From the NCBI RefSeq assembly GCF_056712565.1, contig NZ_CM160072.1: a stretch of 64,000 nt of DNA. One strand, given 5' to 3'. The position numbers and the translations under genes are program-made. The notes beneath the pieces were generated by a model. It searched no databases. It was not told the DNA's origin and was given only the letters and a program-made list of their open reading frames with translations. Within the stretch, counting starts at the first letter, position 1, and each line of letters starts with the position of its first letter. Shown here one piece after another: positions 11,061 to 15,292 of the stretch.

Positions 11061-11345
11061 ATGCCTTTAGCAGCCAAACTTACCGACAAAGGCACCCAGC
11101 ACGACGGTTATTACGAGACCGTCATCACCGCCGGGTCATCCACCGTTTTTATCGATGGTCTCCCCGCAGCCCGTCAGGGAGATCCGCTGACGCCGCATGC
11201 TAAACCGAAGCATCCACCTCATCCCCGAAAAATCGCCAGAGGCTCGTCAACCGTCTTTATTGACGGCCTGCCCGCCGCCAGAACCGGTGATGCTATTGAC
11301 TGCGGCGGCGTGGTTATTGGTGGCGGCACGGTAAATATAGGCTGA
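11061..11345 (+). CDS. PAAR-domain protein (type VI secretion spike-sharpening protein)
   Basis: 94-aa ORF with two STVFIDGLPAAR(Q/T)GD motifs and a His-rich segment; strong SD (AGGAGG) 8 nt upstream; immediately precedes vgrG. Confidence 0.8.
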   Translation: MPLAAKLTDKGTQHDGYYETVITAGSSTVFIDGLPAARQGDPLTPHAKPKHPPHPRKIARGSSTVFIDGLPAARTGDAIDCGGVVIGGGTVNIG

Positions 11346-11363
11346 TATGTCTGAGAGGTATTT

Positions 11364-13769
11364 ATGTCCTTAAAAGGTCTTCGCTTTACGCTGGAGGTTG
11401 ACGGCCAGGAGCCGGACACCTTTGCAGTGGTGAGCTTCCGGTTAATCCAGAACCAGTCTTATCCGTTTGTGATGAGTGTGGATGTCGCCAGCGATTCTTT
11501 TATGCAGACGGCGGAGATGCTGCTGGAGAAGAACGCAACGCTGACTATCTGGCAGGGTGTCATCCCGCTGCGTTATGTCACAGGCGTGGTGGCAGGGTTT
11601 GGTATGCAGGAGAACAACGGCTGGCAGATGCGTTATCACCTGCGTATTGAGCCGCCGTTATGGCGGTGCGGGCTGCGGCGGAACTTCCGTATCTTCCAGC
11701 AGCAGGATATCCGGACGATATCGGCCACATTACTGAACGAGAACGGCGTCACGGAGTGGACGCCGCTGTTTTATGAGGACCATCCGGCGCGGGAATTCTG
11801 TGTCCAGTACGGGGAAAGCGACCTGGCGTTTCTGGCGCGGCTGTGGGCGGAGGAGGGGATTTTCTTCTTTGAGCGGTTTGCGGCGGACAGTCCGGAGCAG
11901 AAGCTGACGCTGTGCGACGATGTGGCGGGGCTGTCACAGGCGGGGGAGCTTCCGTTTAACCCGGACACATCGGCAGGAGCGGAGACGGAGTGTGTCAGTA
12001 TGTTCCGTTATGAGGCGCATGTCCGCCCGTCATCGGTGCAGAGCCAGGATTACACGTTTAAGGTGCCGGACTGGCCGGGGATGTATGAGCAGCAGGGTGA
12101 GAGCCTGAACGGACAGCTTGAACAGTATGAAATATTTGATTATCCGGGAAGGTACAAGGATGAACAGCACGGCAAGGATTTCACGCTGTACCGGATGGAG
12201 AGCCTGCGCAGTGATGCGGAAAAGGCCACAGGGCAGAGTAATTCGCCGAAGCTGTGGCCGGGGACGTGGTTTACGCTGACGGGGCATCCGCAGAAGATGC
12301 TGAACCGTGAATGGCAGGTGGTACAGAGCATTCTGTCAGGAGACCAGCCGCAGGCGCTTCACGGCAGCCAGGGGAGAGGAACCACGCTGGGAAATCAGTT
12401 AGAGGTGATACCGGCGGACCGGACGTGGCGTCCACGGCTGCAAAGCAAACCGAAGGTGGACGGGCCACAGAGCGCCATTGTCACCGGGCCTGCGGGAGAG
12501 GAAATCTTCTGTGATGAACATGGCCGGGTACGGGTGAAGTTTCACTGGGACCGTTATCACGGGATGACGGAGGAGAGTTCGTGCTGGGTGCGTGTGTCGC
12601 AGGCGTGGGCGGGGCCGGGATTTGGTAATCTGGCGATACCGCGGGTGGGCCAGGAGGTGATTGTTGATTTTCTGAACGGGGACCCGGACCAGCCGCTGGT
12701 CATGGGCCGGACGTACCATGAGGACAACCGTTCGCCGGGGGACCTGCCGGGAACGAAGACGCAGATGACGATACGGTCGAAGACCTATAAAGGAAGCGGT
12801 TTTAATGAGTTGCGCTTTGAGGATGCGACGGATAAGGAACAGGTCTATATCCACGCGCAGAAGAACATGGACACGGAGGTACTTAACGACCGGACGACGG
12901 ATGTGAAACATGACCATACGGAGACCATCGGGAACGACCAGAAGATAACGGTGGTGAAGGGGCAGACGGTTCAGGTCGGGACCAGAAAAGAAGGGGGCCA
13001 CGACCAGAGTATCACGGTGGCGAACGACCGGTGCATCACGGTACGTAATGACCAGACGCTGCAGGTGACGAATGACCGGACGGTGAGCGTGAGTAATGAT
13101 GACGGCCTGTACGTCAGAAATGACCGTAAAGTGACGGTGGAAGGGAAGCAGGAGCATAAGACGACGGGGAACCATGTCAGCCTGGTGGAGGGAAAGCACA
13201 GCCTGGTGGTGAAGGGGGACCTGGCGAGGAAGGTGAGTGGCGCGCTGGGGATAAAGGTCGACGGGGATATCGTGCTGGAGAGCAGCAGCCGGATAAGCCT
13301 GAAGGTGGGTGGCTCGTTTGTGGTCATCCATTCAGGGGGCGTGGACATCGTCGGGCCGAAAATCAGTCTCAATAGCGGCGGTAGTCCGGGGACGCCGGTG
13401 CCGGCGCTGCAACCGACGGTGCTGAAGACACTGGGGGATGAGAAGAGTGGTGATGGCAGTGATTCCGGAGAAGAAAATGAAGACTCTGGAGGGAACTGCG
13501 TGACCGGAAGTGGTGGTGATGATCGAGGTGACGATGAGGATGAACCTGAAAAATATACTCTCCAGTTCCATTTTACAGACGATGACGGGATACCGTATTC
13601 AGAAACCCGCTACATTGCCTTCTTTGAGGATGGCACGCAGACCCACGGAGAAACGGATGAAGAGGGGTATACAGAGCGTTTTTTTGTATCTAGCAAACAT
13701 GAAATTAAAGTGAAGTTGCTATTTGCGAATGATGATTTTCTCTCAATGGAAGGACACTATGGACGATAA
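11364..13769 (+). CDS. vgrG: VgrG type VI secretion tip/spike protein with an acidic linker and a C-terminal extension
   Basis: 801-aa ORF with a VgrG-type N-terminus (MSLKGLRFTLEVDG), gp27/gp5-like regions, beta-helix repeats (VTVxNDxT...), then a Gly/Asp/Glu-rich linker and a beta-rich tail. Confidence 0.9.
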   Translation: MSLKGLRFTLEVDGQEPDTFAVVSFRLIQNQSYPFVMSVDVASDSFMQTAEMLLEKNATLTIWQGVIPLRYVTGVVAGFGMQENNGWQMRYHLRIEPPLWRCGLRRNFRIFQQQDIRTISATLLNENGVTEWTPLFYEDHPAREFCVQYGESDLAFLARLWAEEGIFFFERFAADSPEQKLTLCDDVAGLSQAGELPFNPDTSAGAETECVSMFRYEAHVRPSSVQSQDYTFKVPDWPGMYEQQGESLNGQLEQYEIFDYPGRYKDEQHGKDFTLYRMESLRSDAEKATGQSNSPKLWPGTWFTLTGHPQKMLNREWQVVQSILSGDQPQALHGSQGRGTTLGNQLEVIPADRTWRPRLQSKPKVDGPQSAIVTGPAGEEIFCDEHGRVRVKFHWDRYHGMTEESSCWVRVSQAWAGPGFGNLAIPRVGQEVIVDFLNGDPDQPLVMGRTYHEDNRSPGDLPGTKTQMTIRSKTYKGSGFNELRFEDATDKEQVYIHAQKNMDTEVLNDRTTDVKHDHTETIGNDQKITVVKGQTVQVGTRKEGGHDQSITVANDRCITVRNDQTLQVTNDRTVSVSNDDGLYVRNDRKVTVEGKQEHKTTGNHVSLVEGKHSLVVKGDLARKVSGALGIKVDGDIVLESSSRISLKVGGSFVVIHSGGVDIVGPKISLNSGGSPGTPVPALQPTVLKTLGDEKSGDGSDSGEENEDSGGNCVTGSGGDDRGDDEDEPEKYTLQFHFTDDDGIPYSETRYIAFFEDGTQTHGETDEEGYTERFFVSSKHEIKVKLLFANDDFLSMEGHYGR

Positions 13770-14520
13770 TAATCAAACTTCTGGACAACCAAAGCCAGAG
13801 CCAGAAGAATGTGTGAAAGAGCAAAAAATAACAGATCATTTTAAAATAATGATTGATAAGGCTCGTAAGGCACAAAAGTTGGTTTTGATAAAAAGAGCAG
13901 ATGATCTTTTGAGATGGGGAGCACAGGAGGAATATGATTTCAGTAAGATCTTTGGTGTTAAAGGAAATAAGGAGGTTAATATAAGAAAATATGGACATAA
14001 TACAGGTAGGCGCATGAATGCTAGATTTCTTATGATGGATGGTGTGAGAAGATTAATGATTATAGCTAATGATTTAACAATGAGCAGTTTTATAAATTAT
14101 ACAGGTTGTAATGAATTTGCAGCATTCGTCAGCCCAAGTAAGGATATGCCCTATATAATTAACATAGGCGCAAAATTTGAGTATAGAGATGGCAAAAAAA
14201 ATCCAGTAACGGGAAAGGATTCTCATGTTGCTACTTTATGTCATGAAATGTCTCATATTCAGTGGTATTATGGGGATAATAAAAAAGGTGGTATGTGGTC
14301 ACAGGATTATACAACTACTGATAAATATTCAACGTGCAAAGAGGATGAAGTTTCATATGACGAACATATCCGTATTGCAACTAAACTGATCTCTAAACAA
14401 AAAGATCAAATATTTGAGAATGCATATAACATAGAAAGATATTTTGAAATAAGATTAATTGAAAGTGAGATAGACTCGATTGATGATGAAATATTAAGCA
14501 ATTCAGTTAAGAAAAAATAG
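13759..14520 (+). CDS. Candidate type VI secretion effector: HExxH (zinc-metallopeptidase-like) toxin
   Basis: ATG at 13759 overlaps the vgrG stop (ATGGACGATAA) with GGAAGGA upstream; about 253 aa containing CHEMSH; markedly AT-rich by eye; no signal peptide. Confidence 0.55.
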   Translation: MDDNNQTSGQPKPEPEECVKEQKITDHFKIMIDKARKAQKLVLIKRADDLLRWGAQEEYDFSKIFGVKGNKEVNIRKYGHNTGRRMNARFLMMDGVRRLMIIANDLTMSSFINYTGCNEFAAFVSPSKDMPYIINIGAKFEYRDGKKNPVTGKDSHVATLCHEMSHIQWYYGDNKKGGMWSQDYTTTDKYSTCKEDEVSYDEHIRIATKLISKQKDQIFENAYNIERYFEIRLIESEIDSIDDEILSNSVKKK

Positions 14521-14572
14521 CGGAATTAGAAAAAGCACTTCTCCATTAACTAATAAGTCGAGAAATATATTA

Positions 14573-15292
14573 ATGCTGCAAGCTATAAAAAAAATCATAA
14601 TAATGACAATCGTAAATATTATATTTTTCTATTCCTTTCAATCGACTGCGGATGAAATGGTTTTAATAAAAAAATACGGGTTTGGGCTTGAGAGAGATAT
14701 CAAAGGAAGGCCATTAATTTATCCTATCGAAAATTATGATGAGTGTAAGAAAAAATGCAATCATATGAATTATATAGCGGATGTCAATGCTCAATTAGCT
14801 ATGAGTAAAAAAAATAACAGGATTTTTGCTAACATAACCTTTACTAACAATAGCTCTACCACGTATTTTTTTTCTAAATATTATCTACCTATGAAAGTAA
14901 AAGATGGAAAAGGAGATGAATATGATGCGATATGCAAAAAACCATTCAGAATCAACTCTGGGAATATCACGTTGGACTACTTAGGTGGTTCATGTCCTTT
15001 TGAAATTAATACGAATCCTGAACGGTGGAATACTATTAAACCAGGTCGTAGTTTTTTGTTGAGTATAACCTTAAATGATATGTATGCCTTTATACCAGGA
15101 GATAATTATTATTTTATAAAATCATCTGGCTATAAATTTGTTAATGACAAGTGGTTTACACTCAAATCAATCAATAATATTTTTCTTTATTTTTTAAATT
15201 TAAAAATTAATTGTGCTGATGATTTTTTTGATATTAATAATTTTACTACATGTAATAATTTGTTATTGGATGAAAAAAACACTTTTTATTAA
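14573..15292 (+). CDS. Candidate cognate immunity protein (periplasmic, signal-peptide-bearing)
   Basis: 239-aa ORF with N-terminal signal peptide (MLQAIKKIIIMTIVNIIFFYSFQSTA|DE), several Cys, very AT-rich; directly downstream of the candidate effector. Confidence 0.45.
   Translation: MLQAIKKIIIMTIVNIIFFYSFQSTADEMVLIKKYGFGLERDIKGRPLIYPIENYDECKKKCNHMNYIADVNAQLAMSKKNNRIFANITFTNNSSTTYFFSKYYLPMKVKDGKGDEYDAICKKPFRINSGNITLDYLGGSCPFEINTNPERWNTIKPGRSFLLSITLNDMYAFIPGDNYYFIKSSGYKFVNDKWFTLKSINNIFLYFLNLKINCADDFFDINNFTTCNNLLLDEKNTFY

Follow-up and report, generated by a model that had tools for sequence, protein, structure and literature searches.

A module of four co-directional genes lies at 11061-15292 of a 64,000-nucleotide stretch of contig NZ_CM160072.1 (NCBI RefSeq assembly GCF_056712565.1), which as a whole is referred to here as the window. 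The module encodes two type VI secretion system (T6SS) spike proteins, PAAR and VgrG, followed by an effector of the M35 metallopeptidase type and a candidate immunity protein. From 5759 to 59363 the window is collinear with, and 99.99% identical to, the genome of Escherichia coli S88 (B2), where the RefSeq labels of the four products read PAAR, Vgr family protein, "M35 family metalloendopeptidase" and hypothetical protein. The original prediction, made from the letters of the sequence alone, had described four co-directional open reading frames (ORFs) here, the third of which overlaps the vgrG stop codon and carries a CHEMSH motif. Genes, coordinates, overlap and motif were all recovered, but the ORFs of 253 and 239 amino acids (aa) proved to be shortened alleles, and full-length forms of the effector (263 aa) and of the immunity protein (273 aa) were used for comparison. 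The features of the module are listed below; BCE049 is a mastitis strain and PAR an E. coli strain with which the alleles were compared.

11061-11345, plus strand: PAAR spike-tip protein, 94 aa (NCBIfam NF033420; S88 annotation identical)
11364-13769, plus strand: VgrG/TssI spike protein, 801 aa (TIGR03361; Pfam Phage_GPD, Phage_base_V and Gp5_trimer_C)
13542-13742, plus strand: C-terminal transthyretin-like domain, VgrG residues 727-793, proposed to dock the cargo
13759-14520, plus strand: M35 (aspzincin) metallopeptidase effector, 253 aa, without signal peptide or propeptide
14242-14256, plus strand: HEMSH zinc-binding and catalytic motif (H162, E163, H166), read directly from the sequence
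14512-14517, plus strand: A6 run, shorter by one A than in the 263-aa allele, at the cost of the final 10 effector residues (compared with BCE049 and PAR)
14573-15292, plus strand: truncated 239-aa allele of the candidate immunity protein, with residues 1-26 as Sec signal peptide (syntenic with M35 effectors and co-varying with them)
14771-15094, plus strand: beta-sandwich of the immunity protein (residues 67-174), a homologue of the propeptide domain in secreted M35 zymogens
15273-15287, plus strand: A7 and T5 runs, where slippage leads to a premature stop (15290-15292) in the immunity gene
15271-15392, plus strand: out-of-frame remnant encoding the conserved immunity C-terminus (...IDGDNLKLPY), seen in the ORF at 15213-15392

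Judged by their profile matches, PAAR and VgrG are bona fide T6SS spike proteins. PAAR was covered over its whole length (residues 1-94 of 94) by the equivalog model NF033420 at 157.8 bits (curated cut-off 124), while VgrG scored 601.9 bits against the NCBIfam model TIGR03361 (curated cut-off 186.35), contains gp27-like and gp5-like domains and matched VgrG structures in the PDB at E 1e-86. The effector gene begins (ATG, 13759) before vgrG ends (TAA, 13767-13769), giving an overlap of 11 nucleotides, and the G+C content falls from 0.55-0.63 in vgrG to 0.23-0.35 over the effector and immunity genes. A promoter and terminator scan returned no signal above background. According to the S88 annotation, there are no T6SS core genes in the S88-collinear part of the window, and the look for a core cluster elsewhere in the genome, which the original prediction had recommended, located a complete one (tssA-M) between yafT and yafV of S88, ~1.27 Mb from the module; the term "orphan" is therefore correct. 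Residues 1-500 of the window VgrG are mostly 98-100% identical to the VgrG of this S88 cluster, with 92% in the lowest 50-residue block, and identity collapses past about residue 550. Because the window protein and the VgrG encoded in the cluster are nearly identical over their first ~500 residues, the former should fit the yafT baseplate.

Beyond an acidic linker, VgrG ends in a domain of ~70 residues which, on the evidence of profile comparison, is transthyretin-like and of the same type as the cargo-docking domain in VgrG1 of enteroaggregative E. coli (EAEC). A profile of seven such VgrG ends matched residues 781-831 of EAEC VgrG1 (PDB 6sjl) at E 4.9e-4 and, weakly, residues 25-66 of a VgrG2b construct (PDB 6h56) at E 0.049. 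The end of the window VgrG is 54% identical to that of a T6SS1-type VgrG, whereas the cores of the two proteins are only 26% identical, and an end of this type lies upstream of the M35 genes at each of the loci examined while being absent from VgrGs with other cargo. The domain appears to be a portable end that travels with M35 cargo, an association newly noted here, and it may serve as the cargo dock for the M35 effector. In EAEC VgrG1, a C-terminal transthyretin-like domain likewise carries a separately encoded effector, Tle1. However, the EAEC cargo is a phospholipase and its VgrG has a DUF2345 extension, for which no Pfam match was found in the window VgrG; DUF2345 was dropped as a candidate docking element for this reason.

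The effector represents a divergent M35 subfamily with the aspzincin metallopeptidase fold. A profile of 18 effector homologues, searched against all PDB sequences, retrieved AsaP1 (E 1.8e-6) and the Grifola peptidyl-Lys metalloendopeptidase (E 0.0015), and the effector profile aligned to the catalytic part of full-length M35 proenzymes with a probability of 97.5%. H162, E163, H166, D183 and E226 are invariant among the 18 sequences of the family, so that the His and Glu residues of the HExxH motif are conserved, and the proposed third zinc ligand, D183 (14305-14307), takes the position of the Asp in the aspzincin GTxD motif (GTDD in the M35 proenzymes; hhalign). D183 lies 17 residues past the second His here, by way of an insertion, and 9 residues past it in short family members. 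The sequence NAYNIERY of the effector aligns to the NADNHEYF helix, which places E226 (14434-14436) on the Glu of the NADNHE motif (hhalign). E226 would then correspond to E157, which we take to be the residue that sets specificity in the Grifola enzyme. The protein begins ~25 residues ahead of the mature domain, with neither a signal peptide nor a propeptide in cis. Membership in the VgrG2b C-terminal metallopeptidase/PA0261 family was also considered and rejected, as the effector profile, searched over all PDB sequences including 6h56, found only M35 enzymes (E<=10).

The same locus has already been described in strain BCE049, as module 5 of 'effector locus 1' (the latter comprising FQU84_13600-13645). 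It occupies the same site, between yncG and the ISAs1 remnant, and shares the gene order of PAAR, VgrG, M35 protein and downstream gene; the second of its tandem modules aligns to the window at 99.4% DNA identity, and the effector-immunity stretch, compared base by base, differs only by six single-base homopolymer indels. The M35-like protein of BCE049 halts E. coli growth only as a PelB-leader fusion (PMC7904677). The proposal of the original prediction that the effector acts on a periplasmic or envelope target gains support from this, the 263-aa BCE049 allele being identical to the window protein over the 253 residues of the latter and toxic only if targeted to the periplasm. BCE049 carries the 263-aa form of the effector, and its immunity ORF is broken in the assembly in a different way. 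BCE049 also has an extra upstream tandem module (PAAR, a 654-aa VgrG, a DUF2169 adaptor, a PAAR-like effector and an ISAs1 fragment; L003:22158-27180). The two PAAR-vgrG heads of BCE049 are 97% identical over 3.3 kb, so that recombination between them could delete or duplicate sequence.

The orphan module of the window is also carried by E. coli PAR, where the effector is 100% identical over 253 residues. The T6SS1 cluster of PAR at metV (L099:15770-24429) holds two tandem paralogous M35 effector-immunity pairs, making three such modules in PAR in total. In front of one of the paralogous modules stands a vgrG of the DUF2345 type, a pseudogene divided into two ORFs by a frameshift, and our mapping of locus tags makes this module most probably identical with the published VgrG/DUF2345/M35/immunity locus AKO63_2953-2956. 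Toxicity at the published locus and its neutralisation by the downstream gene have been reported, and the M35 protein was found to bind a C-terminal VgrG fragment in a pull-down (PMC10673891). The PAR paralogues share 30% (effector) and 31% (immunity) identity with the window proteins and, if the locus assignment is right, are accompanied by a VgrG with a transthyretin-like end.

The gene downstream of the effector has the position, inheritance and predicted localisation of a T6SS immunity gene, lying directly 3' of the effector gene, being co-inherited with it and encoding a protein predicted to reside in the compartment in which the toxin acts. Its family comprises ~120 clusters at 50% identity, with a usual length of 270-315 residues, and falls in no Pfam or NCBIfam family; sequence searches of the PDB with the immunity protein, as a single sequence and as a 49-sequence profile, also gave no match. 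Family genes were found 3' of M35 effector genes in the T6SS1 and T6SS2 clusters of E. coli, in Salmonella and on metagenomic contigs, and the pair is kept, with co-varying identities, in L004-L009, L013, L014 and PAR; the downstream gene co-varies with the effector in at least six loci besides that of the window. The N-terminus (MLQAIKKIIIMTIVNIIFFYSFQSTA, followed by DE) has the form typical of a Sec signal, 47 of the 49 family representatives begin with a hydrophobic N-terminus or signal, and four cysteines are conserved; the protein is thus predicted to be periplasmic, matching the compartment of toxin action. An immunity-family gene at L012:2711-3595 has no adjacent M35 gene and lies behind a different VgrG-linked pair (a 328-aa protein and a 186-aa signal-peptide protein), and looks like an orphan immunity gene, a kind of gene often located in this way. 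The original prediction had nominated the downstream gene as the immunity gene, a candidacy strengthened by the co-variation with the effector, the conserved signal peptide and four cysteines, the orphan copy, and the neutralisation reported for the probable PAR paralogue (PMC10673891).

M35 enzymes are produced as zymogens with inhibitory N-terminal propeptides (PMC11985622), and the immunity protein resembles such a propeptide both in fold and in sequence profile. For the 273-aa form, AlphaFold gave a model with a predicted local distance difference test score (pLDDT) of 85.1. The mature-only M35 structures, which are the best matches of the effector in the same library, were not among the matches listed for the immunity model, and its fold match is therefore to the propeptide half of the proenzyme. 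In a Foldseek search of the immunity model against AFDB50, its own family came first, followed by M35 proenzymes and a BsuPI inhibitor. For the profile-profile comparison, 78 M35 proenzyme genes were taken from genome contig DNA and, together with the query proenzyme, supplied 79 propeptide regions. Immunity residues 67-174 aligned to this 79-sequence profile with a probability of 96.6% and P 5.6e-10 (hhalign), the native template scoring 68 against 14.8 for a reversed template and 8-18 for twenty column-shuffled templates. A two-sequence propeptide profile gave P 0.0019 and a probability of 14.5%, a result that was not relied on. The link to the propeptide is visible only by fold comparison and profile-profile comparison.

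The immunity family may accordingly have evolved, with about equal chances for and against, from the propeptide of the protease itself and would then act in the periplasm as a separate inhibitor, obstructing the enzyme on arrival as in a zymogen. A secreted M35 zymogen would have been split, with the catalytic half losing its signal peptide and becoming spike cargo, and the signal peptide and propeptide half becoming the free-standing periplasmic inhibitor. No report of propeptide-derived immunity for this effector family was found in the paper library searched, and the propeptide-like nature of the immunity protein appears to be unreported, which makes it a new mechanistic lead. Small uncharacterised proteins of 140-210 aa from Massilia, Rugamonas and Pseudoduganella in AFDB50 also resemble the immunity sandwich. 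These genera encode secreted M35 proenzymes as well, and the small proteins may be free-standing propeptide-like inhibitors outside a T6SS context. Two adjoining M35 proenzyme genes (L016:1523-2812 and L016:3065-4261) were seen on a high-GC gammaproteobacterial contig, the first of them called only as a 103-aa fragment owing to a frameshift in the assembly.

We consider it probable that the module is an orphan spike-and-cargo unit that serves the yafT T6SS and encodes an M35 toxin together with a propeptide-like immunity protein. PAAR would cap the VgrG trimer, and VgrG would seat in the baseplate of the yafT cluster (T6SS2 in the naming of the BCE049 paper), which is the apparatus that the module presumably uses. 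The transthyretin-like end of VgrG would hold the M35 effector, which would be injected into the periplasm of Gram-negative neighbours and be toxic there as a zinc endopeptidase, with H162, H166 and D183 as ligands and E163 as the catalytic residue. The immunity protein, exported by Sec and probably disulfide-bonded in the periplasm, would shield sister cells by binding the protease as a propeptide binds its own catalytic domain, leaving the active-site cleft blocked. The effector-immunity pair is proposed to be a zymogen split into two genes.

Several observations weigh against this reading. Both cargo genes are shortened, and as distant homologues conserve the tail that the immunity protein has lost, protection may be impaired. 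Deletion of the whole BCE049 locus caused no attenuation in mice (PMC7904677). The one reported case of neutralisation is most probably that of a PAR paralogue with 30% identity, identified through the locus-tag mapping described above. The effector is not placed in M35 at Pfam or NCBIfam thresholds: Pfam Aspzincin_M35 (PF14521) gave a partial match (E 0.0047, 17.8 bits), and the NCBIfam search with the effector gave no match. The Asp that stands three residues before the specificity Glu of NADNHE is replaced by an invariant Tyr in the effector family, so its substrate specificity may differ from that of the Lys-N enzymes. Lastly, similarity between beta-sandwiches can be convergent, though the profile-profile score speaks against convergence in this case.

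The shortening of the 3' ends of both cargo genes by homopolymer slips in this lineage is newly noted here. Effector homologues continue as KKIxELE..., and the 263-aa C-terminus of BCE049 and PAR matches these homologues. In the immunity gene, full-length alleles have runs of A8/T6 (E. coli) or A7/T7 (Salmonella), and the slip exchanges the last 37 residues for 3 frameshifted ones (239 versus 273 aa); the translation of the out-of-frame remnant matches the C-termini of P0031, P0042 and P0050 and of the Salmonella homologue. The effector-immunity DNA is present in 640 of 5426 complete E. coli genomes (~12%), including S88, APEC O1 and ATCC 11775. The exact truncated alleles occur on ~900 contigs (immunity) and on at least 1000 contigs (effector), and truncated and full-length forms are both common. 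Many homopolymer-length variants were counted with short queries at both sites among complete genomes, some of which may be long-read assembly errors. Caution is warranted when the S88 or APEC O1 alleles are cloned as "wild type".

A paralogous immunity gene in another E. coli lineage, at L006:7480-7680 in a T6SS cluster beside ivy and fadE, is 42% identical and frameshifted at a T8 run in the equivalent position, and its conserved C-terminus can likewise be read out of frame. As this frameshift is independent, the immunity-gene run has been broken at least twice, and may represent a hot spot of slippage or, possibly, a site of phase variation.

The main alternative, decay of the module in this lineage to a remnant with no working toxin delivery or no immunity, draws on these slips. 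The loss of 10 C-terminal residues from the effector and of the conserved last 37 from the immunity protein would be expected of such a remnant, as would the frameshifted yncG upstream, the GNAT pseudogene and ISAs1 fragments downstream, the highly polymorphic homopolymer lengths at both sites, the independent frameshift of the paralogue at the same place and the lack of a virulence phenotype on deletion of the BCE049 locus. However, the window retains an intact catalytic domain with every zinc ligand, an intact propeptide-like sandwich and signal peptide, all four conserved cysteines, and intact PAAR and vgrG genes; the C-terminal tail of the effector is missing in many family members and so is probably dispensable; and the truncated alleles recur, letter for letter, on the large numbers of contigs given above. 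On sequence grounds, the shortened alleles plausibly function, and we hold decay to be unlikely, if the most serious of the alternatives.

Considerably less probable is that the metallopeptidase is mainly directed against a eukaryotic host, like AsaP1, with the downstream protein incidental. AsaP1, the closest bacterial structural relative of the effector, is a toxin of a fish pathogen, the carrier strains are extra-intestinal pathogens, and VgrG2b was initially described as an anti-host protein. In contrast, the effector shows toxicity to E. coli in the periplasm, the signal-peptide partner is tightly conserved, and the BCE049 deletion was not attenuating in mice (PMC7904677). That the downstream protein is instead a folding chaperone for the protease, the other classical propeptide role, is very improbable: the protein is homologous to a propeptide and propeptides often assist folding (PMC11985622), but the Sec signal and the cysteines are on the downstream protein and not on the effector, orphan copies exist without an adjacent M35 gene and the probable PAR paralogue neutralised toxicity, and immunity fits better because the signal peptide is found only on the propeptide-like half, which places the two proteins in different compartments of the producer.

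Returning to the spike-and-cargo reading, the module as a system is already known, having been annotated and partly characterised in print. It resembles VgrG2b/PA0261 of Pseudomonas aeruginosa (PMC6899460) in combining a VgrG, a transthyretin-like domain, a periplasm-acting HExxH peptidase and a downstream immunity protein with a signal peptide. Set beside the secreted M35 zymogens (AsaP1 of Aeromonas, PDB 2x3a, and the fungal peptidyl-Lys metalloendopeptidases), the effector corresponds to the catalytic domain and the immunity protein, by fold and profile, to the propeptide. The window pair differs from these zymogens in being encoded by separate genes in swapped order, in keeping the signal peptide only on the propeptide-like protein, and in the additional N- and C-terminal elements of the immunity protein. 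The module exemplifies the modular nature of T6SS weaponry, with a conserved VgrG base, a swappable transthyretin-like dock and swappable cargo at a recombination-prone site common to Rhs elements. Propeptide-like immunity, if true, would provide a mechanism for the neutralisation of this toxin family and a ready-made structural model for immunity. It would also make zymogen propeptides a source of immunity genes, a general route for protease toxins, and would point to natural protein inhibitors of Lys-N-type M35 proteases.

The module lies between two remnants of ISAs1 ends:

10763-10831, no strand assigned: left ISAs1 (H-repeat) end remnant (direct repeat with 15394-15462, 74% identity)
15394-15627, no strand assigned: right ISAs1 end remnant and internal transposase fragment (S88 annotation 'ISAs1 family transposase, incomplete')

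On the left side, window positions 10791-10920 are a 91.5% match to the sequence immediately upstream of K-12 ydcC. The K-12 gene order on which the original prediction drew is borne out as yncG-yncH-rhsE'-ydcD-yncI'-ydcC, a segment of which is replaced by the module in the window. The further suggestion of an exchangeable cargo site is upheld by the rhsE remnant in K-12, the two tandem vgrG modules in BCE049 and the ISAs1-end remnants on either side.

Upstream, yncG (glutathione S-transferase family; window 9920-10520) is split into two ORFs and is annotated in S88 as a frameshifted pseudogene, while it is intact in K-12. Downstream, positions 15691-16156 form a GNAT acetyltransferase pseudogene, for which S88 annotates only a 71-aa ORF; with the frames joined by hand, it matched Pfam Acetyltransf_7 at E 4.9e-8, and K-12 carries ydcC and pptA at this place. 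Further along, at 40811-40975 beside dosP, S88 annotates only a 165-nucleotide diguanylate cyclase fragment where dosC would be expected. Identity to S88 stops within ydeP at 59363, and the exact junction at this position was found in one piece in no complete genome of the collection. In the remainder of the window (59364-64000), an IS2/IS3-type element (ORFs 59917-60822 and 60780-61190) comes first, and fimbrial usher and chaperone genes come after it.

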